64,000 nt of DNA from Planctomycetia bacterium (GCA_005772855.1 SXIK01000066.1:1532-65531); one strand, 5' to 3'; shown: positions 35,968 through 57,198, counted from the first letter of the stretch. A program made the numbers and translations. Notes: generated by a model not told the origin, from the sequence alone.

Positions 35968-36042
35968 CGACGCGAGTGCCGATTTCAAGAGGAAATCACT
36001 CGCCCCGACGCCGAAATCAGAAGCTATTCAGCACCCAAGCAC

Positions 36043-37020
36043 TCACCGATCGACGAAACTGGCCATGGGCCGCGTGTGCTGTGAATCTTCCCAGCCGGTC
36101 GCCTGCGCATGAACCCTGTCACGCCCTTCCTTCTTCGCGTGGTAGGTGGCGCTGTCAACACAGCGAACAAGGTCTTCCGGCCCTTTCATTTCGTCGCGGA
36201 GCTGAGCGACTCCAAAGCTCGCCGTCAGGTGGATGGTTCGTTGACCTGCGGTGATCGCAAGTGCCTTGAGCTTTTCACGCAAGCGCTCCGCGTAAAGTGT
36301 CGCACCCTCAAGGTCCGTTTCAGGCAGAATCAAGACCGCTTCTTCACCCCCATAACGGCACGCGAAGTCAGTACCTCGAGCATTCGCCAGCAGCAAATTG
36401 GAGATCTCGATCAGAACCTTGTCCCCGATCGGGTGACCGTAGGTGTCGTTGATCCCCTTGAAGTTGTCGACGTCCATGAGAACAAGAGAGAGCGGACGTT
36501 GGTAACGGCGTGAGCGGTGAAACTCCCGGATGAGCGTGCTCTGGAAAAAGCCACGGTTATATAGGCCTGTAAGCGCATCCGTGCTAGCACTTCTGAGAAG
36601 AGAGTCTTCCGCCCGAAAGGTCACCTCGTCCCAGAGGTAAAAACCGATGAGCGTTCGCCCCAGGAGGATCTTGTCGCCGTTCGATAGCTCCTTGGTGCTG
36701 ATGCGGACACCGTTCACATAAGTGCCATTCCTGCTGTCCAGGTCAGTCAGGGCGATCTGCGGTTTGGCGACTGGCTCACTCAGGTTCGTGAAAATGAATC
36801 GTGCATGGCGGCGGGAGCAATTTGCGTCGTGAAGAACAATATCGGCGGTGTCATCACGGCCCACCGTGAGCTCCTGTTGCTTGATCTCGTATCGCCGCGA
36901 GGTTCGCCGTCCGTCGAGTACGACCAGGACGGCGTGCTCCCTCCCCGACGGGAGACAGGTGGGATCGAGGCCCCAGGGCTGCTGGGCACCGTTCAAGCTC
37001 TTCGTGTCGGGTATTTTCAT
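36043..37020 (-). CDS. FHA-domain-containing diguanylate cyclase (FHA-GGDEF)
   Basis: ORF 36043..37032; the first ATG is at MKIPDTK. FHA block TVGRDDTADIVLHDANCSRRHARF...DLDSRNGTYVNGVRI. GGDEF domain with I-site RGTD and the active-site variant RYGGEEA (GGEEA in place of GGEEF). Confidence 0.85.
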   Translation of the reverse strand: MKIPDTKSLNGAQQPWGLDPTCLPSGREHAVLVVLDGRRTSRRYEIKQQELTVGRDDTADIVLHDANCSRRHARFIFTNLSEPVAKPQIALTDLDSRNGTYVNGVRISTKELSNGDKILLGRTLIGFYLWDEVTFRAEDSLLRSASTDALTGLYNRGFFQSTLIREFHRSRRYQRPLSLVLMDVDNFKGINDTYGHPIGDKVLIEISNLLLANARGTDFACRYGGEEAVLILPETDLEGATLYAERLREKLKALAITAGQRTIHLTASFGVAQLRDEMKGPEDLVRCVDSATYHAKKEGRDRVHAQATGWEDSQHTRPMASFVDR

Positions 37021-37231
37021 TTCATGCTGCAAAGAGAAGCTCTCCCGGACTTCAATCGGCAGCGTCCAGGGAGGGGGTTGACCCTTTGCTTTTCCCGGCC
37101 TTGCTCAATGGTTTGTTATCACCACTTCCAACAAGCTTCGGCGGTTGCGTTGTAAGATTCCGGTGGGCTGGATGCCAGGGCTAGTCGCGCACCCCAGCGA
37201 CTCGCAAAGCGGACTCCAGAGGGGTCCTGGC

Positions 37232-40200
37232 TTATCGACTCAGCTCAATCATTTGCGCCACCGGGACCGAGGCGAACCGACAACCCTCCGCCATGGTTTC
37301 GATGTCCTTCGCTCCGGTGGTCTTGCGATAAGCCTGAGCTTGAGTGGGCTGCAACGTGCGCAGGATCACGTTGAGTCCAGAACTCGCGTGCTTGAATCTG
37401 ACTTCGGCCTCAAGGAAGCGCTTGTTGGCAAGAAATAGTTTGCCCAGCTGGTACCGTGTCTGCCAGAGGATCTCCGGGTAAGGAGCCTGGGCTGCCATGT
37501 TTTCCGCGAAAAGCAAGTTGCGCTCGGCACGGCTAGGTTGGCCACCTGGGATAACGGATTCCAGAGCCGCAGTGGCAAATAAGTAGCGGCACCGCAGGTA
37601 GGAGAGCTGAAGCTTTTCGGCCAAGTGTAGGCCCTCCTCGAAGTTCAGATAGGCTTGCTCATGTTGGCTCCGCTTGAGACACAGAAGCCCGTGCTCCAGA
37701 TACAGGTGCGCCAAGTCCCTCGCGCTGCCATGAGTCGTCAGCATTTCCGTGGCCTCGGTGAATACTTTCTCGGCATTGTCGAGCTTACCCTCGTCGGCCA
37801 GAACCATTCCCTCAATGAGACGAGCCCAGCCACCCAGCGACGGCAAGTCATGATTCCTTGACGCCTCGAATAGAGACACAATGGCCCTGCGCGCCTCGCC
37901 CGTGCGTCCAAGTCGACACAGGAGGTACCCTTGCTGAGTGGTCAGGCGCGCCACTGCGACGTGGCCCCTGAGGTCTCTGGCAGCCAGGACTCCCTCCGCC
38001 ACATGGTTGAGAGCCATGCCGAGATCACCCCTGTAGAGGGCCAGGTCACTCAGAAGCCCAAATATACCCAGCATGCCGGCATTGGAGCCGCGACCGGCAC
38101 CGCTCATCCTCTCCGCTTCCTCAAGATGTCGCTTCGCGTTTTGCAGCTCACCCTTGTCGCTGGCAACTCCGGCCATTGTGAGAAGGGTCTGCAGAGTCAG
38201 GCGACGCTTCTCGAGTGGCCCCATACGTCGCAACGCTTCCTCAATGACCTCGTGGCAAGCATCATATTCGCCCAGCAATCGGCACACTTCGGCAAGCGTA
38301 CAAAGAGCCGCCACGGAGTGGCACAAGTTGCCGGTTTTCGCGTAGAGGGACACTGCCTCCTCGAGGCTGGCTCGGGCCTCAACCTGGTTTCCTATCAGGT
38401 GGTACAATATGCCAATCTCTCGATGGCAGTCGGCCTGCCCGTCCAACGCACTGGTCTTGCGCCGCAGAAGGAGGCAAAGCTGAAACTGACGCAAAGCCTT
38501 GTGGAAATGTCTCTGATAGAGGTGGTACTTTCCACGACAGTACAGGCTCCAGGCCAACAGCTTTGAATCGTGCTGAGCCTCAATTAACCGCAGGGCCGTC
38601 TGGCAGTGACCGATCGCATTCTCCGAGCTGTTCAAGACAGAGTGATTCTCTGCTATCAGCATGTGGAGCTGCGACAAGAAGTATGGGTCTTTGAGCTCAC
38701 AGTTTGATTTCAAGAGTCGAGTACAGCATCGGAGGCTCTCAACAAGGTTGCCCTTGTAATAATGGAGTTCCGCCAGGGCCATCATGATGGCCGCCAACTC
38801 TGCCGTGGACTCACTGCCCTTGTCGGGTCGAACTGAGCGGTTCAGAAGAGCAGTGGCCTGGTCGAATCGTCCAAGCCGAGCGTAAGCCCGCGCCGCTTCG
38901 AGATAGACGCTGACCTTCTCCTGTCGCTTCAAGTCAGGCGGAAGTCGAGTGAGGTCAAGCAGATCAAGCGCTGCACTGTAGTCGCCGACCTGAAATTTCA
39001 GGGAAGCAATCGCACGCTCAATCTGAAAACGCAGGCTGCGCTCATCCGGTCCAACAAGGCCAAGCACTCGTTCGTAAGTCTCCATCGCCTGGATGGGAGC
39101 AAACTCTCTCGCCAGGTCCTTTGCCGCCTCGATTCCATACCGAATTCCCTTCTCCTTGTTCCCGGCTCGAATGTAGTGGTGAGCCAGGATCCTGGAGGAA
39201 TCCTTCCCAAGCGAGGCGACTCGCGACTCGCAAAGGACACCCGCTTTTTCGTGATACGCGGAGCGTTGCTCCTCCGGAATGCTGTTGTAAAGGATGGCTC
39301 GGGCGCTCGAGTGCACAAAGGAATAAGCACCCGCCCGATTCTCCGCGCCGCCACCCTGCAAAATTCTTTCAAGCGTCAAGACTTCCAAGCACTTCACGGC
39401 ATTCCGTTCGGGAATTCCTGACAGATGGACAGCGACGTCAAGCTCACACACGTCGCCCATGCAGGCGAAGGCTCTTCCTATCTGAAGCACTTCCTCTGGC
39501 AGTTTCGTGATGCGATACTTGAGCTCACGGCGGACCTTACCGGGAAGATCCTCGCTTTCGTAGTCGCTCCCCAGCGCCCAGCCCTGTGCCACCCGTGCAA
39601 TCTTGCCCCGGTGAAGAAGGTGTCGGAGGATGTCAATGACGATCTCAGTGTTGCCATCGCTTTCCTCGAGCACTCTCTGAACGAACGCCTCGGGACATTC
39701 GAGCCCGACGAAGGCGGTGCGCACAAATTCCGCAACCTTCTGCTCATCAAATCGCCGCAACTCAATCTCGAGTACGTTCTCTCGAAAAAACGTCGTGTCG
39801 CAAAGACGCAGGAAATCGCTGCTTCCCAGCTCGGCTCGCTCAAGGACGGTGCCCGTCATGAGAAGCTTTGATCGGGCCACGGATCCCCCCAGCGAGGAAC
39901 GTATCAGAGACTCGAGCAGATGCAAGATTGGCGTGCCGGCCAGGTGCAGGTCGTGAAAGCAAACCACGATCGGAGACTCCTGGCTGGCTTTCAGAAGCGC
40001 GTGAACTGCCTCCTTGAGCACAGGCTCGTACCCCTGGACGGGATTGTCCTTCAAGTCCTGAAGCCTCTGCACAAACCCAAACGCATTTTCGACGAAGGTC
40101 AAGGATCGCACTCTTCCGCGCAACTCGTCAATCGCACCAAGGTCGGCCACAATGCGTTCGAAGCCCTGCCCCGCCCTGGAATGGGCACCACATTCAATCT

Positions 40201-41419
40201 GGATAAATTTTGCTCCTTGCGCCTGTACGATCGCTCTGAACTCCTCGATCAGACGTCTTTTCTGTAACCCTTTCTCCCCACGCACCAGCACCAGTCGACC
40301 CGCCGGAACGGGGGTCACAGCGTCGACACGATCCAATGGCTCTGACTTGTCCACGGCATCGCTTTCGACTTCCTCCTCGGCGCCTATCACGCTGGATTTC
40401 AGGGAGGCCGCGGCAACGAAAATCTCGTAAAGCCTCGCCGACTCCGCCTCTCGTCCAGCAAGACGTGCAGCTTCAAGATAGCTATCAGAAGTCTCTGCCG
40501 TCTCGTACGGAAGCTTGAGCCCAAGAGCTCGGTTTATCGCCTCGATAACTTCAAGCGCGCTTTGAAAGCGATCCTGAGGCTTCTTCGCCATGAGCCTGAG
40601 AATGATGTTGCCAAACTCAAGGGGCAATGACGCCGACAGGGTATGTGGTGGTACGGCAGGCTGCTCAACGTGGCACTTGAGGATTTCAATATTCGAAGCG
40701 CCTCGGAATGGTGGGCTGCCGGTGCACAGGTGGTACAGCACCACGCCAAGTGAGTAGAGGTCCGTACGACGGTCGATCTGAGCGCCAAGGATCGTTTCAG
40801 GAGCAACATAGTAAGGAGTCCCCAGGATTTTCTTGCCGCCCGAGAGTCGCTCCTTTTTCACAAGACCAAAGTCGATGATCTTGACGAGCGGTTTTTCTCT
40901 TGATCCCGGTTGCAGTGAAACCTCTGTAGTCACCAGAATGTTTTCGGGCTTGATGTCCGAGTGTACGAGTCCACGCCCATGAATGTACTCAAGCCCACGC
41001 AAGACTTGGGCAGCAAGCTCAACGAAAGTCAGAAACCCCTCCTGTGACTTCATGTTGAGTTTTTGCGTGGCCTTCATCCAGCTTTGGCCGTTAACAAACT
41101 CGAACGTGAAGAAGAGATCTCCCGATTCGTAATCAATACCAAACTCGTACGCTGGCGTCAGGTTGGGATGTGGAAGCCCCGAAAGCGCCAGGAACTCATT
41201 CTTGAGGATATTAAGGGTACGCCGGTCTATCTTGTCCTTCCTGACTCGCTTCAGAGCTACAGGTTTTTCACCTTGAGAGAGGTCCAGGGCGAGATAGACA
41301 GCCCCCATTCCGCCCTGTCCGAGTAGGCGAATGGACCGATATCGGCCGTTCAGCAACTCCCCTGAATTCGGGTCACTTGCTACTTCTGGCCGGATAACTG
41401 GTGGGGTGGGCAAGCTCAT
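37232..41419 (-). CDS. Multidomain Ser/Thr protein kinase: N-terminal Hanks-type kinase, central STAND/AAA_16-like NTPase module, C-terminal TPR repeat array
   Basis: ORF 37232..41527, trimmed to MSLPTPPV. Kinase motifs GQGGMGAVYLA, VALKRV, HSDIKPEN, DFGL, YYVAPE. A P-loop-like GEKGLQKR (apparently degenerate Walker A) and hhhhD Walker B VVCFHDLH. At least 600 aa of TPR-like helical repeats at the C-terminus. Confidence 0.85.
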   Translation of the reverse strand: MSLPTPPVIRPEVASDPNSGELLNGRYRSIRLLGQGGMGAVYLALDLSQGEKPVALKRVRKDKIDRRTLNILKNEFLALSGLPHPNLTPAYEFGIDYESGDLFFTFEFVNGQSWMKATQKLNMKSQEGFLTFVELAAQVLRGLEYIHGRGLVHSDIKPENILVTTEVSLQPGSREKPLVKIIDFGLVKKERLSGGKKILGTPYYVAPETILGAQIDRRTDLYSLGVVLYHLCTGSPPFRGASNIEILKCHVEQPAVPPHTLSASLPLEFGNIILRLMAKKPQDRFQSALEVIEAINRALGLKLPYETAETSDSYLEAARLAGREAESARLYEIFVAAASLKSSVIGAEEEVESDAVDKSEPLDRVDAVTPVPAGRLVLVRGEKGLQKRRLIEEFRAIVQAQGAKFIQIECGAHSRAGQGFERIVADLGAIDELRGRVRSLTFVENAFGFVQRLQDLKDNPVQGYEPVLKEAVHALLKASQESPIVVCFHDLHLAGTPILHLLESLIRSSLGGSVARSKLLMTGTVLERAELGSSDFLRLCDTTFFRENVLEIELRRFDEQKVAEFVRTAFVGLECPEAFVQRVLEESDGNTEIVIDILRHLLHRGKIARVAQGWALGSDYESEDLPGKVRRELKYRITKLPEEVLQIGRAFACMGDVCELDVAVHLSGIPERNAVKCLEVLTLERILQGGGAENRAGAYSFVHSSARAILYNSIPEEQRSAYHEKAGVLCESRVASLGKDSSRILAHHYIRAGNKEKGIRYGIEAAKDLAREFAPIQAMETYERVLGLVGPDERSLRFQIERAIASLKFQVGDYSAALDLLDLTRLPPDLKRQEKVSVYLEAARAYARLGRFDQATALLNRSVRPDKGSESTAELAAIMMALAELHYYKGNLVESLRCCTRLLKSNCELKDPYFLSQLHMLIAENHSVLNSSENAIGHCQTALRLIEAQHDSKLLAWSLYCRGKYHLYQRHFHKALRQFQLCLLLRRKTSALDGQADCHREIGILYHLIGNQVEARASLEEAVSLYAKTGNLCHSVAALCTLAEVCRLLGEYDACHEVIEEALRRMGPLEKRRLTLQTLLTMAGVASDKGELQNAKRHLEEAERMSGAGRGSNAGMLGIFGLLSDLALYRGDLGMALNHVAEGVLAARDLRGHVAVARLTTQQGYLLCRLGRTGEARRAIVSLFEASRNHDLPSLGGWARLIEGMVLADEGKLDNAEKVFTEATEMLTTHGSARDLAHLYLEHGLLCLKRSQHEQAYLNFEEGLHLAEKLQLSYLRCRYLFATAALESVIPGGQPSRAERNLLFAENMAAQAPYPEILWQTRYQLGKLFLANKRFLEAEVRFKHASSGLNVILRTLQPTQAQAYRKTTGAKDIETMAEGCRFASVPVAQMIELSR

Positions 41420-41560
41420 GGAATCCTGCCCGTAGAATACGATGCGAAAGCCGGACGGGTAAGGCTGCCCTGGAGAAGAGGAACTTCCAAGGCGCCCTGG
41501 CGGCCAGGAAGCGGACAGGCCCGACAAGTGAGGCCATCCTCAAATGAAAGGCTCGGGCTA

Positions 41561-42709
41561 CTATTCAAGTCGCAGATCTGCGACTCGGAGGCCCCTTTGC
41601 ATTCGGCACAGTGTGGGGCAGGCCACTTTGACCGCTATGGGAATGATTTCCTGACCTAGCCGCCATGCCGCCTCCGGGGGTGGTGACTGGGTGGGGTGGA
41701 TCAAGAACACTTGCTCCTCGGCCAATTCCAGGAGACTGGCCTTTCCCGGGATCCAATTGGGTGACGCGCAGGCATATGCTGCCTCCAAACTCGACAGATA
41801 GGCTGCGATGTTCTCGTTTCCTTCAGCAGGCAGAGGAGCCTTCGCCATTCCGTAGCTGCCAAACGCTCCACTTCCGCTACTCCCGGAGCGCTGCAGAAGA
41901 ATCTCCGGAACGAGCGCCGACAAGAGGATGAATTCAGCAGTTCTGCTGGCCACCACTTCAAGATTGGCGGAGACCATGAATGCTTGATCAAAGGCCCTCG
42001 AGTTTTCGATCTCCTGAATTGCGCCGCGGAAGCTGCCCCACGCCTTCGGAAAGGGTCGTGTCAGAAGGTGCAGCACTGTTCGCCCTCTTGAGCCTCGCCC
42101 GAAAAATTCCCGGAGGTCGAGTAGCAAGTCTGGCAATACAGTCACCCAGGGATCTTCTATCCCAATAACAACATGGGCCGTAACCCTGGACTCATGAGAC
42201 TTCGCGAGGTGCTCTGCCAGAAGAGGTAGTGGGCTATTGGTGCCTGCGGTTGCTCTATACAACGCACGTAGATACTCTCCATATCTTGGATTGAAAGTGA
42301 CTTCTGTCTCGCTGTTCGATTCAAAAATCACAGGAATCACCTCCGGGGCCAAGTCTCTGCCGCGGGACGTCTCCAGGTCAAGATAGAAGAGTTGCGGGAA
42401 GGCGCCTGGCTTTCGCTGTTGGGCCAACGCCGCAAGGGTGGCTCGTCCCATTTCGCCAATCGCGATCACTGCCGTCTGAGCATCTGGACCTCCGAGTATG
42501 TCGGCAGCTTCTATCACCCTCCCAAGAGGTAGAGACAGGAGTTGGCCATCGAGCGCGCCTGCGTGAAGGAGCATGGAGCTTGCACCGAGGAGGTCTTTCA
42601 AACTCTCCAGGTCGACAGGTTCCGAAAGCGCCTCTTCGATCAGGCCCCGCAGCTGGCTGAACGCACCGGGTTCACCCAAGCGCAGAGCCACATCTTCCGT
42701 CCAGCTCAT
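41561..42709 (-). CDS. Hypothetical protein, 382 aa
   Basis: The long ORF is on the cluster strand and its stop is 142 nt upstream of the kinase start. Codon usage matches its neighbours; no motif recognised. Confidence 0.55.
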   Translation of the reverse strand: MSWTEDVALRLGEPGAFSQLRGLIEEALSEPVDLESLKDLLGASSMLLHAGALDGQLLSLPLGRVIEAADILGGPDAQTAVIAIGEMGRATLAALAQQRKPGAFPQLFYLDLETSRGRDLAPEVIPVIFESNSETEVTFNPRYGEYLRALYRATAGTNSPLPLLAEHLAKSHESRVTAHVVIGIEDPWVTVLPDLLLDLREFFGRGSRGRTVLHLLTRPFPKAWGSFRGAIQEIENSRAFDQAFMVSANLEVVASRTAEFILLSALVPEILLQRSGSSGSGAFGSYGMAKAPLPAEGNENIAAYLSSLEAAYACASPNWIPGKASLLELAEEQVFLIHPTQSPPPEAAWRLGQEIIPIAVKVACPTLCRMQRGLRVADLRLE

Positions 42710-43326
42710 GGCGCAGACCCCGGGTTGTCATTCCTTTGTCCGCCCCTTGCCCGCTGTCGTGGCCTGGACCCAAGAAGAACGGAAAGCTGCTCGAGGCCTT
42801 GCTTCGCAACGTGCAGCAAGTCACGCCGTACAAGATCGAGCGCAATCTTGATCCGCTCGGCACGTCGGTCAAGGAGGAGAAGTCGCGAACGAAACTTGAA
42901 CCCCACGTGCGCGCCAACTGGGTACTCCGCAAAAGACCTCTCCAGGGTCTTTTCCTCGCCAACGAACGCCTCTATCTCCGGGAGCATTCTTTCCCAGCGG
43001 GACCCAAGTGCTTCGAAGCCATGGGGCACTTCCTCATACTCGACTCCCTTGCCTGAAATAACACTGCTCCCACTCAACAAGGGTGCAAGAAAGAATCGAG
43101 AGATCCTTGCCCAGGCGTCGCACACTCGTTGCCCGCTTCGAGCCTCATCGAGAATTCCAAGGCTGCGAGATGCCTCTCGGAACGCTTCCACCGCTCTGGA
43201 CAGGCTTTCGAGGCGCCGCTCAGCATCCAGCAACCCACCGATGGCAGACACGAGTTCCTCGGGCTTTGCACCGGGAGAATCCACGGTCGAAAGAGACTCT
43301 CTGATAAATCCTGGCAGGCGGCTCAT
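42706..43326 (-). CDS. Hypothetical protein, 206 aa
   Basis: Stop overlaps the start of the downstream 382-aa gene by 4 nt (translational coupling). Largely helical-looking; no motif recognised. Confidence 0.5.
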   Translation of the reverse strand: MSRLPGFIRESLSTVDSPGAKPEELVSAIGGLLDAERRLESLSRAVEAFREASRSLGILDEARSGQRVCDAWARISRFFLAPLLSGSSVISGKGVEYEEVPHGFEALGSRWERMLPEIEAFVGEEKTLERSFAEYPVGAHVGFKFRSRLLLLDRRAERIKIALDLVRRDLLHVAKQGLEQLSVLLGSRPRQRARGGQRNDNPGSAP

Positions 43327-43380
43327 TCGATCAAGACCTCAGGCAAGGTTTCCTTCCCATCTCTTTCCACAGAGGCTGAT

Positions 43381-45477: not shown

Positions 45478-45480
45478 AAA

Positions 45481-48210: not shown

Positions 48211-48296
48211 GGAATCTCCTCAAGATACCGAACAACTTCGAGACTTGGCGCGCAGGTTATCTCTCGAGTCGCATGAGCGCCGGAATTGAGTCATGA

Positions 48297-51200
48297 TCAC
48301 CAATCAACGATGATTGTCGAGTAGTCCACAACACCCGGAACTTTCACGCTGGCTCGCAGCTGGTTTCCGCTTTTCCCTACCCAGCCGTTATAGGGGAAAT
48401 CCTCGCCCGGAGTGAGCGTGACACTTCGTCCGCTCGCCGTGGTAATACGCAGCTTGCCATCCGGCTGAAGTCGAAGCGAGAGAAGTGATTTCTCCCCCTC
48501 GCCCTTCCTTCCAGCGCCATCGTGCAAGACGAACACGTCCGGGCACGAGTCCCCGTTCCGGGCCCCCTCCCCCTGGGCGATGCACACATCGGCGCCCCGT
48601 ATCGGAAGGCGCTTCTCCGTCTCAAGACAAAGCTCTGTGCGCACTTCGGAGAGGCGATCTTGAATCAACTTGAGGCGCTTCGCGTTTCTCTGCGGATCGG
48701 AGAAAATAGAAGTCTCCATGGAGAAATGATCGGTTACCCAGGCCTCCACCTCGGCTCCCGAAACCTTTCCGTTGAGCTCCAGCGGCCCGATCGTTCGATT
48801 CGCAAGTGTAATGCGAAGGCTTCCAGTCAGGCTCTCTCTGGGCTCGGCTTCAAGATCGTGGATCGCCTTGTCCTTCCGGACACTGACACGCTCAAGAACT
48901 TGTTGTCGATCCCGGTAATACCCGAGGCCTCTGATCCCAAGGAATCCCAGAAGCACGACAAGACCGGCCAAGGCCCCGTAGAGAAGTCCTGTGTACGCTC
49001 GCTCCGTGCTCCCCTTCGTCGCCTCGAACTCGAACTTGCGCTGGAGCGGTGTCTTGCCCCTGATATCGAGCTGAAGCGTATGTTTTCCAAAACCTGCCGG
49101 GGTATAGGGGACAAAGACCACGAGGCCCGAGGTCGCCGTGTCGACATCAAGCACCTTCTCGCGTCCGTCCTCGGACACGACGATCGCCGCGACGCTCTTG
49201 CGAAGCGAGTCCTCCGACTCGACCAGCCCGCCGATGCGATACCCCAGACGGATGCTGGAATCCCTGGGAATGCTGAAGACCGGAGGCAAGTCCCTCGTTT
49301 CATAACCTGACGGCCCCTTCTCGAAGCTCATTACCTCCACAAGGGTTCCGCCTCCGCGGACAATATCGAGATCCAGCCCGTCGAACTCGATCGCGTTAGG
49401 CTCGGCCGCCCGATCCGTCAACCGGAGACGAACCTTCACGGCGCTCGTCGAGAGTGGCTTCGTCGAAAACGAGTTGAGAATGAGCACTCCAGGCGGCGTT
49501 CCCTTCTCGGCTTCCCACTGGGTAAATTCGACGTTGAGCTGCTGAGCACCCTCGCCAAGAAGTCCGGGCCGCAAGACAAACAAACGATCAAAGCTCTCCT
49601 TGTCGAGGGACGGCGGCCCGCTGATCTTGACCGAAAGAGGAAGTTTTTGGCCATCATCAAGCTTGATTGTTGTGCCAAGGTCGCGGGACCACTGGAGCTT
49701 GAGGGGCGGCTCCACGAGGAACTTCTCCTCGACCGTCCAACTCGTACCCTGCCCGAGACTGGCTTCGGCACGGACCCTGTAATTACCTTCTTTCTTGGGT
49801 GACCAGACCAGCTCTGTCGAGTCAGAAGAAGCCATCTGGGTGCTGGCTGCATCGACCTCGCCTCCGGAGTAGAGTTGAATCCTGGAATTTCGCTGCGGAG
49901 CCTGCCCTTCGATCGTCACCCGCAAGCGCTCTCGGGCCATGAAGGGCAACACGGTCGCGCCAGCCCCCAGGTCTTGCTCCTCGGCTCGGCTAAAGACGAG
50001 TTGAAGGGTCGACGGGCCAATCGCGACTTTCCGCTGCTCGATGGCCTCGCCCTCCCTCGTGTTCACCGACACCACGAAGCTGTCCTTCAGGCCCTTCTCG
50101 GCGGCGGCGTTGAGGTACGCGGCAAATTCGATCCTCACGCCGAACAGAGCCTCGAGGGTGGCCTCCTTGGGAGGCGGAAGTAGCTCGAACCCCTCAAGCA
50201 CGTTGGCCGGCGTCGTTGAAATGAAGGGTCGCAAGATCAGCTCCTTGCCTGCCTCCTCGCGTTGCGACTTCAATCCACCGCGCACGATGACAGCCCCTTC
50301 GATATACGTACGCTCCCCGCGTCCGATATCCGACGGAGGCGATTTTGTCCAGGCCACCTCGTATTTCAGGGACACGGGGTTCACATCCAGGGTCCCGAGG
50401 GACAACTCAAAGGTGCGTCCACCCGCGTCGCTGATCGTGAGAGCCAGAGTGTTCCTTTTTTCCAGGCTTTCCAGTGAGATCGGCTCCGAACGGAACTTGC
50501 CCTCGGCCTCCGACCAGCGGATGTCGCCCTTGCGCCCGTTGAGATACAACTCGGCGCTCACAACCTTCTCCGTTCCGGTCTTCCCGGTGGCCGACGCAGG
50601 CTCCACGCTCACCCAGATCACTCCTTCGCCCTGGCTACTTGACTGGTCGGTTCCCGCGCCGAGCAGGACCCTCTGGTCGGTGCCTTGCGAGCTCTTCACG
50701 ACCGTTGCCGAGAATGGACAGGGGCGCACGTTGAAAAAACAGGCGGCGATATCCTGCCCTAGCTTGGCCAGTGGCGAGCTGACGACAAGCTTGTGAGTAC
50801 CCGGATCAAGCACCACGGCCTCAAGGGTGCCTATCAAGGCGTCACCTTGCAGGGTCAGGTCAACATGATGAATCTGCTCGGACTCGCCGATCGTGACATT
50901 CGCAGGCTGCGATTGCCAGACGCTGAGAAGATCACGTTGAGTCTGCGCATTCTGGCCGCCCATCGCACGCAAGCGGAAGCGAATGGCTGATCCACGCTGG
51001 CCCAGGAGCACGTCCCCGTCGATGGGCTCGATCACTATTCCGAGCGCCCTGGTGCGTGAGAAGACCTCGTAGTCTTCCGTGATGACTCGATCCATCGATC
51101 CGTCATTCCATTTCATGACGACATGAAGCTTCGCTGGTCCCGTGTGAAAGTCAGTCGTGGCAAACGCGAGCGAATAGTGCCCGTCGAGTTCCTTCACAGC

Positions 51201-53585
51201 CTTGACCTCCTGGGGAGCGCCCACATCCTTTCGAGCCCAGGTGAGAGTGCCAGCAATCGAGCTTTTTACCTTATCAGGAAAGACCTGGCTGGGAGAAACC
51301 CTGAACAGTAGTGGACTGCCAGCCAGTACAGTGGGCTTCCCCGCCTCAGTTTCGAGGGCTCTTCCCCCCTCCGAGGTGAATCCAGCTGTGAACGCTCGGG
51401 GCTTCACCTCAAGCCTGTCACAGCGTTGGTCGCTTGTCGGATCAGGACCCATGGGTCTCTTCTCGGGCCATGCAATCAGATAAATCCCCGGCTCCAGCCC
51501 GCCGAGCTCTCCGCGGTAGTTGGCCGAGATCTCAGCGTCACCAGATCTTGGCGTCTCGCTGACAAGAGTCACCTGCCGGACAAGCACCCAGCTACCGCTC
51601 GCATCATCCCTCTTCAGGAGAGAAATCTTTGAAGGTGCTGATGACTCTGTCTCCCAATACTGGGCGGTGGCAGCCGGCGTGAGGTGATTCATGGTGCGCG
51701 ATCTCGAGATCTGCACAATTTCACCCTGATAGAACGCGCCGAGGTCACGCCCCTGGGCACTATCGGTACCATCCTTCGAGTACTGGCTGCCCGGCGGACG
51801 AAAGTCGTCGCGAAGAACCCTCAGACTAAACAGGGCTTCCTGAACGCCGCCGGCCTTCACTGTCACCTTCGCCTCGTAGAGACCGGGCGTTGTGGGAAAA
51901 ATCCAGTCACTCGAGAAAGTCCGGGGAACGCCACCAGAATCCTTCATGCGAAGTCTGCGTGCGGCGCTCTCGCCGACGGCTCCGAATGTCGCGCTGACCT
52001 CCGTCTCCGCAAGAGACTCCTGTCCTCCGTAAGTGAGCTCAAGCCTCACCTCCTGACCCAGCTCCACATCCACATTGCGCCGGCTCGCAGGACGAGAGGC
52101 GCTTTCGGGCTCGCCCTTCCAATTCTTTCGCACAAACCAGTCGAAGCTCGACGGCACTACCATGAAAGAACGGTCGGGGGCCCGGCTGAGAGGCCGTTTA
52201 CTGACCGCGCTATCAGCCGAGGCCCCCGTGTACACGAGGCTGGCTTTCGTTCTCAGGAAGAAAGACTCCTGAATCTTGGCCTCCCCCTTGGGCGAGGACG
52301 TGGGGATAAAGTAGAGACGGTTTCCAGCTCCCGCTGAAATTTCGGCTGCGGAAAGCGATTTGTTATCAAGAATCTTGCCTTCCGAATCACTCAGCTCGAT
52401 CTTCACACTCGACTTCTTCAACGTGTCCTGAATCGAACGAGCGCGCTCGGGGGTGAGGTCGGCGGGCAAAGAGATCCGGAATCGAATGGGATAGACCTCG
52501 TTCTCGCTGATCTTTGTCTTCACACCCTCGGCAGCGACCGTACCCTCATCTCCAAGGCCTGGAAGCGCCTCCAGCCGAACATTGGAAATCACGAAGACGT
52601 CGCCCGACGCCGGAACGCCGCTGCGGCTGGGCAAGAACTCAACCCATTCCGGCCAACGAACATTCTCTCCCGGGCTCAAGACGACCACGGTACGGTTGCG
52701 ATAGGGGGTGATGGTCGCATCAAACTCGCCGCTGATCAGCTTCGGGTTGTCGAGGTTGATATCCATCTCTCTCGACCCTATTCGGAGCTTCACATCTCGG
52801 GCATTTCTCTGGAAGACGCAGAAGAGTTGCCGGTCCGTTGGCCAGGTGGCCAGACGTGCCGAGATCGGTTCACGGTGGAAGGACATGTGGGGGGCAATCA
52901 GCTCAATCAAGATGTCCTCAATTCCCCGTTCAGGCTGGACTTGTGCCGCAGCACCCCCCGTCTTTCTGGCAAGATCCCGCAACAGGTCCTCCCCGGCCTG
53001 AAGTTGCTTGTCTTCATAGTAGAGCTTCTCGCGACGACGCTTCTCCCGCTCTGCCTTCGGGATCGAAAAGTCGTTGAGGAGGATCGTGTTGATGGCCAGG
53101 CCGATCTCTTGTAAGCCTCTTTTCTCCTCATCGAGACGACCCGCCAGGTTGGGAGCCTTGCCAGCCTGCACGCCGTCAGAAAGAAGGAAGAGATGAACGT
53201 CAGCAGCGCGGCCTTCCGGCTGGACGATCTTGCGGGCAAGGCTCAGCGCCGCGCCAATATCCGTGTCTCCCAGAGGCGGATCCTCCGAGATCAGTTTTCT
53301 GAGCGCTTCAAGATTCTGCGGACGCACCACCTCCCGGGAAAGGACAGCCTCAGGCGTGCCAGCAAAGCGGATAATCGTGAGACGGTGAGTCTCGTCCAGG
53401 CCTTGCACCAGGAGGTCCACCAGGATCTTCTGCGCATCGAAGCGGCAGTTGTAGGGATCATTCTGCGTCATGCTCTCGGAACGGTCGAGAACAAGAACCC
53501 AGTCCGTCTCCGCAGCGGATCTGGTAGTGAGCAGAAACTGCATGAGGGCGGCAGCAGACAAGACGACAAGCCTATTGTGCATCAT
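48297..53585 (-). CDS. Giant (1762 aa) signal-peptide protein with an N-terminal von Willebrand A (MIDAS) domain, long beta-rich ectodomain, single C-proximal TM helix and a cytoplasmic tail
   Basis: Signal peptide MMHNRLVVLSAAALMQFLLTTRSAAETDW. VWA with MIDAS LVLDRSESM...TDIGAAL...LSDG. About 1300 aa of repetitive beta-strand-like sequence. TM helix YTGLLYGALAGLVVLLGFLGIRGLGYY followed by about 270 cytoplasmic residues. The start is 9 nt after the upstream gene stop. Confidence 0.8.
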   Translation of the reverse strand: MMHNRLVVLSAAALMQFLLTTRSAAETDWVLVLDRSESMTQNDPYNCRFDAQKILVDLLVQGLDETHRLTIIRFAGTPEAVLSREVVRPQNLEALRKLISEDPPLGDTDIGAALSLARKIVQPEGRAADVHLFLLSDGVQAGKAPNLAGRLDEEKRGLQEIGLAINTILLNDFSIPKAEREKRRREKLYYEDKQLQAGEDLLRDLARKTGGAAAQVQPERGIEDILIELIAPHMSFHREPISARLATWPTDRQLFCVFQRNARDVKLRIGSREMDINLDNPKLISGEFDATITPYRNRTVVVLSPGENVRWPEWVEFLPSRSGVPASGDVFVISNVRLEALPGLGDEGTVAAEGVKTKISENEVYPIRFRISLPADLTPERARSIQDTLKKSSVKIELSDSEGKILDNKSLSAAEISAGAGNRLYFIPTSSPKGEAKIQESFFLRTKASLVYTGASADSAVSKRPLSRAPDRSFMVVPSSFDWFVRKNWKGEPESASRPASRRNVDVELGQEVRLELTYGGQESLAETEVSATFGAVGESAARRLRMKDSGGVPRTFSSDWIFPTTPGLYEAKVTVKAGGVQEALFSLRVLRDDFRPPGSQYSKDGTDSAQGRDLGAFYQGEIVQISRSRTMNHLTPAATAQYWETESSAPSKISLLKRDDASGSWVLVRQVTLVSETPRSGDAEISANYRGELGGLEPGIYLIAWPEKRPMGPDPTSDQRCDRLEVKPRAFTAGFTSEGGRALETEAGKPTVLAGSPLLFRVSPSQVFPDKVKSSIAGTLTWARKDVGAPQEVKAVKELDGHYSLAFATTDFHTGPAKLHVVMKWNDGSMDRVITEDYEVFSRTRALGIVIEPIDGDVLLGQRGSAIRFRLRAMGGQNAQTQRDLLSVWQSQPANVTIGESEQIHHVDLTLQGDALIGTLEAVVLDPGTHKLVVSSPLAKLGQDIAACFFNVRPCPFSATVVKSSQGTDQRVLLGAGTDQSSSQGEGVIWVSVEPASATGKTGTEKVVSAELYLNGRKGDIRWSEAEGKFRSEPISLESLEKRNTLALTISDAGGRTFELSLGTLDVNPVSLKYEVAWTKSPPSDIGRGERTYIEGAVIVRGGLKSQREEAGKELILRPFISTTPANVLEGFELLPPPKEATLEALFGVRIEFAAYLNAAAEKGLKDSFVVSVNTREGEAIEQRKVAIGPSTLQLVFSRAEEQDLGAGATVLPFMARERLRVTIEGQAPQRNSRIQLYSGGEVDAASTQMASSDSTELVWSPKKEGNYRVRAEASLGQGTSWTVEEKFLVEPPLKLQWSRDLGTTIKLDDGQKLPLSVKISGPPSLDKESFDRLFVLRPGLLGEGAQQLNVEFTQWEAEKGTPPGVLILNSFSTKPLSTSAVKVRLRLTDRAAEPNAIEFDGLDLDIVRGGGTLVEVMSFEKGPSGYETRDLPPVFSIPRDSSIRLGYRIGGLVESEDSLRKSVAAIVVSEDGREKVLDVDTATSGLVVFVPYTPAGFGKHTLQLDIRGKTPLQRKFEFEATKGSTERAYTGLLYGALAGLVVLLGFLGIRGLGYYRDRQQVLERVSVRKDKAIHDLEAEPRESLTGSLRITLANRTIGPLELNGKVSGAEVEAWVTDHFSMETSIFSDPQRNAKRLKLIQDRLSEVRTELCLETEKRLPIRGADVCIAQGEGARNGDSCPDVFVLHDGAGRKGEGEKSLLSLRLQPDGKLRITTASGRSVTLTPGEDFPYNGWVGKSGNQLRASVKVPGVVDYSTIIVDW

Positions 53586-53594
53586 GGTGTTGAA

Positions 53595-55475
53595 CTAGTT
53601 CTTCGGCGGCGCAAGGCCGCCTTCCTCTGTGACGGAATTGGGACTATTCTCGTGGACTTCTCCAGGCGGCGGAGGCCCCGGAGGCTCTGCGGGGGCCACG
53701 TCCAAAGCCTGAGCTGACATCATCGAATACGTGATGGGCGGAAGCCCGAACTTCACTCCCAGGGAATTCACATGAGCCTCAATGGGCTTCAGAATGCCGA
53801 CGTCCGGTTGAAGCGTCCAGGCGTCGCCCAACAACTTTCGCGCCTCGATGACCGCATCGCGATCGACGCTCGATCCTCCGCAAATGGCGACGATCCTGTC
53901 GAGCTTCGCGCTGGCTTCGGCCACGTTCGTCTGCAACTCAAGGCGTCTCGAGAGCGGCTCAAAAATGGGATGGACCGAACGGAGTCGGGCAATCCTCACT
54001 CTGGCTTCCTCAAAGAGCCCTCTCGAGATCGAGTGCGCAATCTCCTTCTCCAGCTCATCGCGCCTCACGCTCGCCAATCGGAGTTGGATCTCATCGCGAA
54101 GATCGGACTCCATCCCGAGCGCCCGTCGCAAGAGCCCGATCGCAACATCCTTCTCCCCTGACGACAGGAGTTCGTTTGCGGTCTGCAAGAGGTGCTTCGC
54201 CACTCGGCCCTGACACTCCCGGTGAAGACGTGCTGCCTCCACCCTCTCGACGTCAGTCCTCGCCGAGTTGAGGAGAACTTCGGACTGCTGAACGAGGTCG
54301 GCCGGCGGGACCCTGAGCTGAAGACCTTCTTCCAGAAGATTGAGCCGCTTGCGGAACGTGTCAAGCAGCCCCTGGCGCTCTCGAATTTCGCGCGCAGCAA
54401 CCAAATCCTTTTCAAGCCGCGCGAGGCGCACGCTCAGAAACTTCAGCGGGCTCACTTTCCGGGGCTCGCTCCTGGAGAGGTCCTCTCTCGCCCGGCTGAT
54501 CTCGGCGGCGGCTCGTGCTGAATGCGCGGTGCCCTGCTCGAGTCGGCCCAGACGGAGACAATCCTCCGCTTCTGCGAGAATATCCTCGATCTGTCCCTGA
54601 ATTCTGGCGAAAGTCTTGGTTTCCGACGCAAAGCTTGCAGGGATATCCCCGTCGCAAAGGAAGAGCGCAAAGCTCGCTGGTTCGCCTCGCCCCGGCGGAC
54701 ACTTTCGCCACTCTGCCCTGGCAACGCGCAACAAGTCCTTTATGTTGGCAATTTCCTCTGCGTTCTCCCCAAGGCTCTGCAAGTGCTGAAGAATTCGGGC
54801 CAGGTTGAGGAGAGCGGCGGGGACACGCTGCGGATCATTGGCTGCGAGAATGAGGTTGTCGCGCCCTGCTGAATCGCCCAGTCGGATTTGTGTCACTGCG
54901 AGGTTGTTGCGTGCGACTGACAAGAACGGGTAACCTCGCTCGATCGCCTTCAGAAAAAGACCCCGGGCGAGGGAAGGATTCTCCGCGTAACGAAGCCATC
55001 CCAGCAAGAAACAGGTCACGGAGAAAATGCTGTCGTTGAACTCGGCATACTCACGCAGCAACTCAAGCTCCCGGAGTACGACAGCACGCCGACCGCTTCC
55101 CTTGCGAAGGAGTTGCACCTTGTCAGAAGCGTCGTGCAGCATGTCATCGAGAGGCGAGAGAGCGGGGCAGTCTCGAATCCGCCGCTCCGACGGGTCGCCT
55201 TCCATCTGGACAAAGTCATCCGGACCGAGCTCCCAGCGAGAGATCATCTCGCGCAAGGTTCGCACGCTCACTCGCCCGCTAGCGCCATCGGCTCCACGGC
55301 GACGGTAAAAAACCGTCCTCACGGCAGAAGGCGGGCTCGGATTGTCAGGGAGAAGGGCTTCGGTCTTCACAGGCTTTTCTACAAGGCACTGATTATAAAT
55401 GAAAGTCGTGGAAGTTCGAGGCGCAGCAGAGGCCCTCTTACCCTGTTTCGCGTTGCCTGCTCCCGAACAAGGCAA
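53595..55475 (-). CDS. Hypothetical 626-aa protein, predominantly alpha-helical/coiled-coil; first gene of the cluster
   Basis: Long ORF on the cluster strand ending 9 nt before the VWA gene start. Heptad-rich sequence (LEKDLVAAREIRERQGLLDTFRKRLNLLEEGLQL...). No motif recognised. Confidence 0.55.
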   Translation of the reverse strand: MPCSGAGNAKQGKRASAAPRTSTTFIYNQCLVEKPVKTEALLPDNPSPPSAVRTVFYRRRGADGASGRVSVRTLREMISRWELGPDDFVQMEGDPSERRIRDCPALSPLDDMLHDASDKVQLLRKGSGRRAVVLRELELLREYAEFNDSIFSVTCFLLGWLRYAENPSLARGLFLKAIERGYPFLSVARNNLAVTQIRLGDSAGRDNLILAANDPQRVPAALLNLARILQHLQSLGENAEEIANIKDLLRVARAEWRKCPPGRGEPASFALFLCDGDIPASFASETKTFARIQGQIEDILAEAEDCLRLGRLEQGTAHSARAAAEISRAREDLSRSEPRKVSPLKFLSVRLARLEKDLVAAREIRERQGLLDTFRKRLNLLEEGLQLRVPPADLVQQSEVLLNSARTDVERVEAARLHRECQGRVAKHLLQTANELLSSGEKDVAIGLLRRALGMESDLRDEIQLRLASVRRDELEKEIAHSISRGLFEEARVRIARLRSVHPIFEPLSRRLELQTNVAEASAKLDRIVAICGGSSVDRDAVIEARKLLGDAWTLQPDVGILKPIEAHVNSLGVKFGLPPITYSMMSAQALDVAPAEPPGPPPPGEVHENSPNSVTEEGGLAPPKN

Positions 55476-55623: not shown

Positions 55624-57198
55624 TTATCGGCCGTACTCGTTTCCAGAGTTTCGGTCAACGCCAGCGTGCGGCCCTGGCCGCTCACCTCGACTGCCTGGAG
55701 TGAAGGATTCGAAAAGCCAGCGGGCTCCAGGCCTCGAGGTAACTCCACGCCGAGAGATGCTCTCGATCACAAGAGCCAGGAAGAGGACTCCGACCTCGAC
55801 CGACACCACAACCTCGTCGAAAAAGGTTCTGCCGCTCTCAAAGCCAAGGCATGACCCTGGATAATGGTAATCGAGCCAAAACCTGACATAGTAGATTGAC
55901 AAGATGCCGGGCGCGAGCAGCCATGCCCGCTTCCGAACGAAAGGCAAGAGAGGCAGGCACCAGGTGAAATACCAGGGGAAGCCAAGGGGTCCGGCCAGGA
56001 AAAGAAGGGTGAGCACCGCGAAGACCGACCTTGCGAGCTCCCCAGGCCTCGTCTCTCGACAGGTACGAGCAGCATGAAGGAAAACGACCGCCAGAACGAG
56101 TAGTCCGACGGCTGCATGAGCGGCGAACCACGGCGACCCCAGAAGCTGAAACCCTCTGTCAATCCACGGGAAGATCGCATCGTTCATCTCCCAGTTCTGC
56201 GCAAAGGCAAGAAGCGTCTCCTGCCGCCGGGCGGCGCCCACGGGAAACGCAAGAAGGGCGGAGAGCGTGACAAGGGTGAAGCCAAGGAGAAAAATTCCGC
56301 CGCGTTTGGGACTCCAGTTTCTGAAAACTATCGGAAGTACGACCACAGCAAAGAGCTTTGTGCCCGTGGCGGCTCCAAGGCACAAGCCGCACACCAGCGG
56401 CCAGCCACGAGCCTGCGCCGCCAGCGTGGCGACAAGAAAAAAAGTCGGAACCGAATCCATGTGGCCGGAGTTCGAGAACTCCTTGAGGACGAGCGGGCAC
56501 CACGCGTAGAGGACCGACAGACCAGGGTTGAGCCCACTTCGGCCAAGGAGAAAAATGAGCGAGGCGATGGTGGCCAGATCGAAGAGACCGAGTATCGCCT
56601 TCATCGCCCCCACCTGCGTCGCCACTCCCCACTCCACGGGCACGAGGGTCGAGTGGGCTCGAAACACCATCTGTGCCCCGGCCGGGTAAATAGTCGCATA
56701 CTGGCGGTTGTTGATCCGATCGAAGATCTCATTGAGCGCTGGCGAACTCTTCTTGAGTGCAACGAGGCGAGCCAGTTGTGCCACATGGCCCGGCAACAAG
56801 GCCTCACCACCCGCCTCGAAGCCTTCAACCTCCACCGGGCTGAAAAGGTACGGGTCGACGCCAGCCTGCAGAACACGGCCATCCCAGAGGTAACGGTAGA
56901 TATCGTCCTCCTGGATCGGATTCGAGGCAATCAGCAGGAGCCGGGCGGCGACAGCCACCCCCAAGACAAGCCGAGGCCGGGGTGGCGATCTGAGGGCCTG
57001 CATCGAGAACGCCGCATAAAAAATGCCCCAGGCGAGCAGCACCATGACAACGATGAGAATCGGCCTCTCCGCATGGCCGACTCCGTGAACGAACTGAAAG
57101 GAAAGGCCGAGAAGCACCGCAGCGAAGGCCAGCGTGACGATGCCCAGAAGGCGCCAAAGATGCGGTTGAGGGAGAAGCGGGCCGGGGGGCGTTTCCAC
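55624..57198 (-). CDS. Polytopic membrane protein, GT-C-fold glycosyltransferase-like (DUF2029/GT87-like)
   Basis: At least 10 hydrophobic helices. An early extracytoplasmic loop with acidic motif PIQEDDIYRYLWDG, typical of lipid-linked-sugar-dependent GT-C transferases. 524 aa. Confidence 0.6.
   Translation of the reverse strand: METPPGPLLPQPHLWRLLGIVTLAFAAVLLGLSFQFVHGVGHAERPILIVVMVLLAWGIFYAAFSMQALRSPPRPRLVLGVAVAARLLLIASNPIQEDDIYRYLWDGRVLQAGVDPYLFSPVEVEGFEAGGEALLPGHVAQLARLVALKKSSPALNEIFDRINNRQYATIYPAGAQMVFRAHSTLVPVEWGVATQVGAMKAILGLFDLATIASLIFLLGRSGLNPGLSVLYAWCPLVLKEFSNSGHMDSVPTFFLVATLAAQARGWPLVCGLCLGAATGTKLFAVVVLPIVFRNWSPKRGGIFLLGFTLVTLSALLAFPVGAARRQETLLAFAQNWEMNDAIFPWIDRGFQLLGSPWFAAHAAVGLLVLAVVFLHAARTCRETRPGELARSVFAVLTLLFLAGPLGFPWYFTWCLPLLPFVRKRAWLLAPGILSIYYVRFWLDYHYPGSCLGFESGRTFFDEVVVSVEVGVLFLALVIESISRRGVTSRPGARWLFESFTPGSRGERPGPHAGVDRNSGNEYGR

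Follow-up and report, generated by a model that had tools for sequence, protein, structure and literature searches.

The window analysed here is a stretch of 64,000 nt from a Planctomycetia bacterium (GCA_005772855.1, SXIK01000066.1:1532-65531), and the locus in question, at positions 36043-55475, is a gene cluster that combines a tubulin-superfamily GTPase of the FtsZl1 family with a giant von Willebrand factor A (VWA, or vWA) protein. All eight minus-strand open reading frames (ORFs) listed in an initial annotation of the same sequence were found; in the order of transcription they are the genes designated here A to F, followed by a gene for a kinase-TPR protein and a gene for an FHA-GGDEF diguanylate cyclase. 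The gaps recomputed from the coordinates essentially agree with those described in that annotation: 9 nt separate A from B, 86 nt B from C, 3 nt C from D and 54 nt D from E, E and F overlap by 4 nt, the kinase gene follows F after 33 nt (longest ORF) or 141 nt (gene-caller start; ~145 nt in a sister genome), and 199 nt lie between the kinase and FHA-GGDEF genes. A scan for promoters and terminators gave counts below shuffle expectation, with none inside the intergenic gaps.

Gene C (45481-48210, minus strand) codes for a protein of 909 aa that was first proposed as a tubulin/FtsZ-like GTPase, an assignment borne out both by Pfam and by the resemblance of its structural model to tubulin and FtsZ structures. 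It matches PF13809 (Tubulin_2) over residues 10-349 with E=4e-40 and 138.6 bits (cut-off 27), spanning positions 1-352 of the 356 in the model, and Pfam gives no match to PF00091 or FtsZ_C in C. The AlphaFold2 (AF2) model, built with a 78-sequence family alignment (predicted local distance difference test score of 84.5), comprises a tubulin/FtsZ-fold domain (1-352), long helices (364-665) and a C-terminal domain (680-891) predicted as alpha/beta, as opposed to the description of this part as 'mostly alpha-helical'. When this model was compared with the Protein Data Bank (PDB) by Foldseek, all of the 50 matches listed were CetZ, TubZ, tubulin or FtsZ, 38 of them at E<=0.001 and the best at E=4e-6 over ~350-380 aligned columns; a sequence-profile search of the PDB with C found no relative of solved structure. 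The T1 (GLGGTG, 13-18) and T4 (AGGTGGG, 174-180) motifs are both intact, the latter within the strand-loop-helix segment HVVSSCAGGTGGG, and G15, G18, G175, G176 and G178 are invariant among 78-135 diverse family members. In the family consensus, T3 (GAGG), T5 (LPEAF) and a T6/H7-like 'NAxA' segment can be read by eye, and a C-terminal 'HGxPL' motif (G720) is kept family-wide. In short, C belongs to FtsZl1, its GTP-binding signature is intact and its predicted fold is that of tubulin/FtsZ.

The clade to which C belongs is narrow. In an index of 5.8 billion proteins its homologues form 17 clusters with 67-100% identity, all from metagenome-assembled genomes of Planctomycetota or from metagenomes, and in an exhaustive HMMER search of 1.84e9 representatives the clade is one cluster at 50% identity (1832 bits), followed by a next match of 223 bits that covers the N-terminal domain only. 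The wider FtsZl1 family reaches 1539 clusters at E<=1e-3 in the exhaustive search, and a word-index homologue search with the N-domain of C alone retrieved only two fragments. No relatives of C were found in scans of viral contigs. The sole match to the FtsZl1 N-domain in the phage collection is GenBank MT836542.1 (positions 7168-7719), an unannotated 9.8-kb human faecal sequence labelled 'Bacteriophage sp.', in which residues 94-272 are matched with 27% identity (E=2e-8).

Two further genes of the cluster, D (43381-45477, minus strand; 698 aa) and F (41561-42709, minus strand; 382 aa), had been described as coding for a transmembrane and a hypothetical protein, a view that falls short of what HHalign comparison and motif loss indicate. 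F has the complete two-domain tubulin fold but a dead nucleotide site, and D is very probably of the same kind, with a transmembrane hairpin fused to it. These two dead tubulin-fold partners are the most interesting feature of the locus. In D, an FtsZl1-like domain at the N-terminus (~1-290) is followed by a glycine-rich transmembrane hairpin, the central hairpin that had been noticed at the outset and lies at residues 381-438, and by a conserved C-terminal domain predicted as cytoplasmic; the hairpin is predicted to hold the protein in the cytoplasmic membrane, and in 5 of 8 orthologues it gives weak matches to Gly-zipper families. F is soluble and begins with a helical extension of ~75 aa, after which comes the two-domain tubulin/FtsZ fold.

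In both proteins, strand-loop-helix segments recognised by eye mimic the T1 and T4 regions of C without the glycines. T1 and T4 are replaced in D by FFGKLAPD and CLSDTLGW, and the segment of D that mimics the T4 region, its glycines gone, reads YLVECLSDTLGW. In F, T1 is IGEMGRA and T4 is GIEDPWV (segment HVVIGIEDPW), the nucleotide-binding glycine signatures being absent; since these signatures are replaced, F is regarded as a pseudo-GTPase. Residues that took their place are kept among F orthologues (G85, G88, R89, H179 and E185), and towards the end of the domain C, D and F share the motif 'SS[YFI]G'.

The relationship of D and F to FtsZl1 was assessed by HHalign against a 97-sequence profile of the FtsZl1 N-domain, built from the matches of the exhaustive search. 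D(101-278) aligned with FtsZl1(157-356) at 95.1% (E=3.4e-8) and F(172-297) with FtsZl1(161-338) at 88.3% (E=2.9e-6); under permissive settings both alignments are collinear from one end of the domain to the other, and the N-terminal halves, taken alone, also align in register. When the window clade was left out of the profile, the values were 96.1% for D (E=3e-9, over residues 2-280) and 76.3% for F (E=2e-5). As controls, families A and E and reversed alignments were used together with five B segments and the C-terminal regions of C and D, and all of them scored <=0.5%; of 20 column shuffles, 19 scored <=0.6% and one, of D, reached 46.7% (E=2e-4). HHalign among the five-sequence ortholog families of A to F had given no paralogy, a problem of sensitivity that the 97-sequence profile solved. 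A sequence-profile search of the PDB with D returned nothing meaningful, and tblastn of D against plasmids gave no match.

Directly upstream of C lies gene B (48297-53585, minus strand), which codes for a type-I membrane VWA protein of 1762 aa. The features first ascribed to this giant, a signal peptide and a VWA domain with a metal ion-dependent adhesion site (MIDAS), are all present: a VWA_2 domain occupies residues 30-138 (Pfam, E=8.5e-14), an N-terminal signal peptide and one transmembrane segment (1530-1557) leave a cytoplasmic tail of ~205 aa, and the MIDAS pattern DRSxSM...GDTD...LSDG (DRSESM in the window) is kept in 9 of 9 orthologues. The proposal that the VWA ectodomain senses or binds outside the cell needs correction: B is anchored in the cytoplasmic membrane, which places the ectodomain in the periplasm and so not necessarily beyond the cell. 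No family match covers the periplasmic region of ~1300 aa. No fn3 or other repeat family was found in B of nine orthologues even at E<=1, the only matches there being single, weak and of beta-sandwich type (Big_13, Y_Y_Y, CopC). Compared with the window protein, the VWA domain of the orthologues is 70% identical, the middle of the ectodomain 38-56% and the stretch of the last 60 residues 69%.

Gene A (53595-55370, minus strand) codes for a cytoplasmic helical protein, probably of 591 aa. The ORF is open to 55475, which had been taken as its start (626 aa); the helical character of the product is upheld, and the start is likely the GTG at 55370, where the alignment of nine orthologues begins, in agreement with the window sequence itself. 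Besides long helices and a TPR-like region, the protein has a conserved block of ~60 aa at its N-terminus, with sub-threshold TPR matches in 6 of 9 orthologues and a GYF_2 match (E=0.044) in one of nine; a PDB sequence-profile search with A found no relative. Gene E (42706-43326, minus strand; 206 aa) codes for a protein of unassigned fold that carries a conserved RSRLLLLDRRAERIK motif and has nine orthologues with 47-81% identity; neither Pfam, NCBIfam nor PADLOC gave a family match for it.

The proteins of the window were mapped onto contigs carrying C homologues, the sampled genomes being module carriers only. Genes A to F occur in the same order and on the same strand in eight distinct genomes with the full core (the window, L001, L003, L004, L005, L009, L013 and the P0008 contig), and five partial contigs (L010, L011, L012, L014 and L019) are consistent with it; pattern scans of genomes and of metagenomes returned only 1 and 5 loci, respectively. 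The initial annotation had allowed for a chance juxtaposition, to which this recurrence in identical order gives no room. The conserved unit consists of the six genes A to F, because the adjacency of the kinase and cyclase genes is limited to the sub-clade and to the organism of the window, respectively. Co-inheritance of the six genes is accompanied by partial synteny: ferrochelatase, GalK and His_Phos_1 genes recur near the module across genomes. C is the most conserved gene of the module (70-86% identity among orthologues), and B and F evolve faster than C; where the ferrochelatase, His_Phos_1 and GalK genes are 55-63% identical, C is 70-72% and A and D are ~60% identical. Over such distances it is rare for defence genes to keep one locus or to be more conserved than their housekeeping neighbours. 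Rate and synteny data suggest a constrained cell-biological function in an uncultured lineage of Planctomycetota.

The order A-B-C-D also recurs in three outgroup clades whose FtsZl1 is ~20-24% identical to C. In L022 the genes code in turn for a 688-aa protein, a 2064-aa VWA protein, FtsZl1 and proteins of 814, 152 and 467 aa; in L025 for an 804-aa protein, a 1379-aa protein, FtsZl1 and a 735-aa protein; and in L026 for a 722-aa protein, a 1586-aa VWA protein, FtsZl1 and proteins of 951 and 348 aa, with a Ser/Thr kinase adjoining. All three giant proteins have a signal peptide and a single late transmembrane segment, and DxSxS was found in two. The gene after FtsZl1 codes for a protein whose cytoplasmic N-domain precedes transmembrane segments, and the D-like protein of L022 matches both D (HHalign, 95.8%, E=7e-9) and the FtsZl1 profile (95.4%, E=2e-8). 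Moreover, A is homologous to the 804-aa gene product at the same position in L025 (HHalign, 91.9%, E=7e-7). Comparisons of the proteins at the E and F positions, made with single sequences, were negative or of low power. Other genes around these loci, potential accessory ones that differ between the clades, code for an RHS/YD-shell protein upstream and two bPH_2 membrane proteins downstream in L025 (552-3245, 15680-17727), a 1236-aa S8 peptidase in L022 (16949-20659), and the Ser/Thr kinase, a zf-HC2 protein and a Lipase_3 protein in L026 (17206-22401).

A reduced form is found on Thermaceae megaplasmids (L015 10210-18287, L017 10279-19371 and L018 10308-18267), where a type-I vWA protein (~530 aa), FtsZl1 (~905 aa) and a ~680-aa protein without transmembrane segments are followed by BrxL in 3 of 3 cases. 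The ~680-aa protein gave no significant HHalign match to D or FtsZl1, its N-terminus resembling D by eye only. The context is defence-island-like, with helicase, DUF1156, Swt1-HEPN, WYL, methyltransferase, RecQ, 3'-5' exonuclease and TROVE genes. In Nostoc punctiforme pNPUN01 (L016 10895-15213), a small, N-terminally anchored vWA protein is encoded with a 1109-aa tubulin-like protein that has a Cys-rich, zinc-ribbon-like end, among CHAT, caspase, S8 peptidase and TPR genes and with a transposase remnant directly downstream. In addition, a Methanoculleus operon with several VWA proteins and a tubulin-like protein annotated as CetZ was reported to be up-regulated after mechanical disruption of flocs (PMC12008871), which may hint at the conditions under which an archaeal tubulin/VWA operon is expressed.

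The suspicion that the locus belongs to computationally noted families of divergent FtsZ proteins with membrane-associated partners was correct, as it is an operon of the FtsZl1-vWA type described by Makarova & Koonin 2010 (Biol Direct 5:33; PMC2875224). These authors defined FtsZl1, found most of its genes in predicted operons and proposed that it forms a membrane-remodelling machine; the partners that they reported are MIDAS-intact, often membrane-associated vWA proteins, frequent Ser/Thr kinases, a diverged P-loop GTPase, OmpA-like proteins and lineage-specific transmembrane proteins (PMC2875224). In the window, similarly, C lies directly downstream of a MIDAS-intact, membrane-associated vWA gene, lineage-specific transmembrane and 'hypothetical' partners are present, kinase and FHA genes are nearby, and C shares the published FtsZl1 architecture of an FtsZ-like domain, an extended helical region and a distinct C-terminal globular domain. 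In contrast to those operons, the window has no diverged P-loop GTPase or OmpA-like gene, and no Walker A, NKxD or OmpA match was found in the core genes; membership stands because the P-loop GTPase, OmpA-like and kinase partners are optional in the 2010 description. The planctomycete members known in 2010 were kinase-FtsZl1 fusions, one with an adjoining FHA gene (PMC2875224), and lacked such an operon, whereas in the window clade the operon is fixed at six genes and its VWA protein measures ~1760 aa. Finally, the partner families were then listed only as membrane-associated or of low complexity, whereas two partners here appear to be degenerate tubulin-fold paralogues.

The second relevant description is that of Kaur, Burroughs, Iyer and Aravind 2020 (eLife 9:e52696; PMC7159879), whose GAP1-N2 systems have as defining components a DO-GTPase, GAP1 and a protein with rapidly evolving FNIII repeats, with a tubulin theme reported from Firmicutes and Actinobacteria only. 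The window resembles this theme in the helical C-terminal extensions of its tubulin-domain proteins, in the pairing with a membrane-bound protein that has an extracytoplasmic vWA domain and beta-rich regions, in having several tubulin-domain genes in one operon (as in Firmicutes) and in the proposed regulated, cytoskeleton-like assembly near the membrane. It differs in that the extra tubulin-fold proteins are nucleotide-site-dead, one of them with a transmembrane hairpin. Membership of the DO-GTPase/GAP1 systems was rejected, as no match to the defining components was found: no P-loop, NKxD or CxxC...CxxC motif occurs in the eight proteins and no DO-GTPase match was found in Pfam at E<=0.01 (E<=1 for A, B and D), nor any Pfam match to GAP1 domains in the locus proteins, provided that the 2025 Pfam holds those models. 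With a core that shows no P-loop or zinc ribbon and gives no GAP1, DO-GTPase or fn3 match, the locus therefore belongs to the FtsZl1-vWA class and not to the DO-GTPase systems. Membership of any PADLOC system was likewise rejected: NCBIfam and PADLOC gave no system-level match at the locus, and A to F have no match in PADLOC-DB v2, the only matches being generic kinase models (PD-T4-6, mad6) on the accessory 1431-aa protein. The initial statement that no characterised system has this composition is right as regards experiment, a literature search having found no experimental study of any FtsZl1 protein; it needs correction in that systems of this kind had been described in 2010, with a reinterpretation in 2020.

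The reading that we prefer, tentatively and with a confidence a little short of even, is that the six-gene FtsZl1-vWA operon builds an envelope-spanning assembly around a divergent tubulin-superfamily GTPase, the folds, motifs, topologies and co-inheritance being shown above and every contact and activity in it inferred. C would self-assemble in a GTP-dependent manner, D as a membrane-embedded pseudo-subunit would nucleate or cap the C assembly at the cytoplasmic membrane, and F as a soluble pseudo-subunit would cap or regulate the other end. A, E and the conserved tail of B could link the polymer to the giant periplasmic VWA protein, so that metal-dependent binding of a periplasmic ligand would be coupled to the state of the cytoplasmic polymer in a way analogous to an integrin-adaptor-cytoskeleton chain. 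The most likely role in the clade would be the organisation or remodelling of the cytoplasmic membrane and envelope, along the lines of the original 'membrane remodelling' prediction for FtsZl1, with phospho-regulation by the adjacent kinase-TPR protein in the sub-clade of the window. Unlikely, in our estimation, is the fully specified hetero-assembly, in which live FtsZl1, a membrane pseudo-tubulin acting as nucleator or anchor and a soluble cap would be coupled mechanically or allosterically to a MIDAS-VWA receptor; it would be a bacterial integrin-like counterpart, would contain the first membrane-integral tubulin-fold protein and would operate in a phylum that commonly lacks canonical FtsZ and is known for unusual membrane dynamics.

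The novel element is the trio of tubulin-fold proteins, one live and two dead, one of these membrane-embedded as predicted. Such a set recalls alpha-, beta- and gamma-tubulin and BtubA/B, where several tubulin-fold paralogues also divide the labour and where an accessory TPR-type protein occurs; we take BtubC, the TPR protein that accompanies BtubA/B, to be the counterpart of A in its TPR-type role. The relation to these proteins is at superfamily level only; alpha-tubulin still binds GTP, but D and F have lost the glycine-rich loops altogether, those systems have no known subunit in which a tubulin fold is embedded in the membrane, and the polymer in the window is a proposed one. By functional analogy, the pair of C and D, 3 nt apart, is like FtsZ with FtsA, ZipA or SepF, a tubulin-superfamily GTPase needing a membrane partner that is here encoded next to it. 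Unlike FtsA, which is actin-like, and unlike ZipA and SepF, the putative tether combines a tubulin-like domain with a transmembrane hairpin, and there is no division-gene context and no FtsZ_C in C. The module as a whole is functionally analogous to integrin-talin-actin in having a MIDAS VWA/I-domain ectodomain, a single-pass transmembrane segment, a short conserved tail, helical adaptor candidates and a putative polymer-former; homology is limited to the VWA domain, the coupling is a proposal, and the polymer would be tubulin-like and not actin-like.

Several points weigh against an envelope-spanning polymer of this kind. No T7 motif of the NxDxx[DE] type is present in residues 1-360 of C, the family consensus has no conserved acidic position after H7, and the 2010 authors could identify neither T6-H7 nor a T7 catalytic residue in FtsZl1 (PMC2875224). 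It is only profile-profile comparison that points to a tubulin-like nature of D, A and E have no assignable fold, and the apparent retention in the lineage is subject to an ascertainment caveat, as module carriers only were sampled. The literature searched contains no report of polymerisation, GTPase activity or a protein-protein contact for any FtsZl1 protein. Furthermore, distant FtsZl1-vWA modules stand in defence-island-like or caspase/CHAT contexts, and tubulin+vWA operons have been treated as a theme of the GAP1-N2 'DO-GTPase' conflict systems (PMC7159879).

The last two points bear on the strongest alternative, a conflict or defence function, which we consider somewhat unlikely. Here the VWA protein would sense an invader or envelope damage, FtsZl1 would oligomerise in an NTP-dependent way and the hairpins of D would cluster into a membrane lesion, leading to an arrest of the abortive-infection type, with F and the like as inactive paralogues that set the threshold. 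Inactive enzyme domains are typical of NTP-dependent conflict systems (PMC7159879), the hairpin of D has its weak similarity to glycine-zipper families, B and F are the faster-evolving genes, and the narrowness of the clade (one 50% cluster among 1.84e9 representatives) would also fit. The genomic contexts of the relatives agree with such a function: RHS, S8 or lipase genes lie near the outgroup loci, the Nostoc copy is surrounded by CHAT, caspase and S8 genes, and the Thermaceae modules, always followed by BrxL, lie amid helicase, methyltransferase, HEPN, WYL and exonuclease genes. However, the three Thermaceae loci count effectively as a single evolutionary event, and their subfamily is a distant one whose VWA protein is small and whose third gene has no transmembrane hairpin. 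In the window, the genes that flank the module are of metabolic or glycosylation type, and none of mobile-element, phage or defence type was found there. Moreover, PADLOC matches nothing but the kinase through generic models, the core has no recognisable enzymatic effector, and the partly syntenic retention, with C above its 55-63% identical housekeeping neighbours, is atypical of fast-turnover defence genes.

Another alternative concerns the extent of the system. The initial annotation treated all eight genes as one unit; in the full form of this reading, the kinase-STAND-TPR and FHA-GGDEF proteins would be integral, and Ser/Thr phosphorylation and cyclic di-GMP (c-di-GMP) output an obligatory read-out. 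The domain calls of that annotation for the kinase gene (37232-41527, minus strand; 1431 aa, the start being probably at 41419, giving 1395 aa) and for the FHA-GGDEF gene (36043-37032, minus strand; 329 aa) are confirmed by Pfam except for the STAND NTPase. The kinase-TPR protein matches Pkinase (E=1e-44), TPR_12 and TPR_MalT, and its kinase motifs GQGGMG, VALK, HSDIKPEN, DFG and APE are intact; in the NTPase module (residues ~403-544) the P-loop is degenerate (GEKGLQKRR, with no GK[ST] and no Walker A) and AAA_16 scores 30.1 bits, below the cut-off of 32.6, so that the module may be an inactive STAND-like scaffold. The other protein matches FHA (E=1.5e-19) and GGDEF (E=1.5e-45), with GGEEA and an RxxD I-site.

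All eight genes are on one strand with no predicted terminator in the gaps, a kinase orthologue with 73% identity also follows F in the sister genome (L019), whose C is 84% identical, kinases and FHA genes recur beside FtsZl1 in Planctomycetes and elsewhere, and L001 has a stand-alone kinase ~4 kb downstream. However, the kinase does not follow F in L001, L003, L004, L005, L013 or the P0008 contig, six distant clade members in which F is followed by unrelated genes, mostly on the opposite strand (MR_MLE, acyl-CoA dehydrogenase, Na/H exchanger, peptidase M14). This gene content rules out an obligatory conserved unit of eight genes, and an integral role of the pair is, in our judgement, quite improbable. 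The FHA-GGDEF gene is beside the module in the window's organism only, the sister contig ending inside the kinase gene, and has HD-GYP-type genes next to it. In L003, His_Phos_1 is found near the core, whereas in the window it adjoins FHA-GGDEF, which suggests an insertion of the kinase/FHA pair. The kinase is a sub-clade-specific add-on, and the cyclase, whose linkage is uncertain, is probably a neighbour. Just beyond the cyclase gene are two HD_5 (HD-GYP-type) genes and a DUF4388 gene (29147-31066, 32195-33274 and 33271-33912, all on the plus strand), and this c-di-GMP-flavoured neighbourhood may explain the presence of the cyclase independently of the FtsZl1 module.

Finally, it is extremely improbable that C is a division FtsZ, a plasmid-partition TubZ or a phage PhuZ type protein with unrelated neighbours: a substitute for a missing FtsZ is conceivable in Planctomycetota, which commonly do without the canonical protein, and the structural neighbours of C include CetZ, TubZ and FtsZ, but all three candidates were rejected on the missing PF00091/FtsZ_C match, Tubulin_2 alone being found, and on gene context, with no dcw, TubR-like, replication or phage genes near the locus and no relatives on viral contigs, and chance is ruled out because the gene order with the VWA giant and the transmembrane pseudo-tubulin is conserved across clades.

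FtsZl1 is among the most divergent branches of the tubulin/FtsZ superfamily and is widespread, with ~1,500 clusters at 50% identity, and 'membrane remodelling' and 'conflict system' are the competing views of its role. The locus is a compact and strongly conserved version that turns an unexplained operon into a concrete and testable assembly model. If its three tubulin-fold proteins co-assemble, the specialisation of paralogues into catalytic, non-catalytic and nucleating subunits, as among eukaryotic tubulins, would have arisen independently in bacteria. Such co-assembly would also define a way in which a polymer of the FtsZ type can be connected with the periplasm.

As to the composition of the region, G+C is 0.56-0.59 over the kinase and FHA genes and most of the core (window positions 36000-50000) and 0.60-0.65 elsewhere; the dip of 2-4 points relative to the flanks is modest and was not taken as evidence of horizontal transfer. 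Directly upstream of A and on the same strand, a gene at 55624-57198 codes for a 524-aa protein with multiple transmembrane segments and weak GT87/MptB-like (mannosyltransferase) similarity, which among the loci examined is present only in the window's organism.

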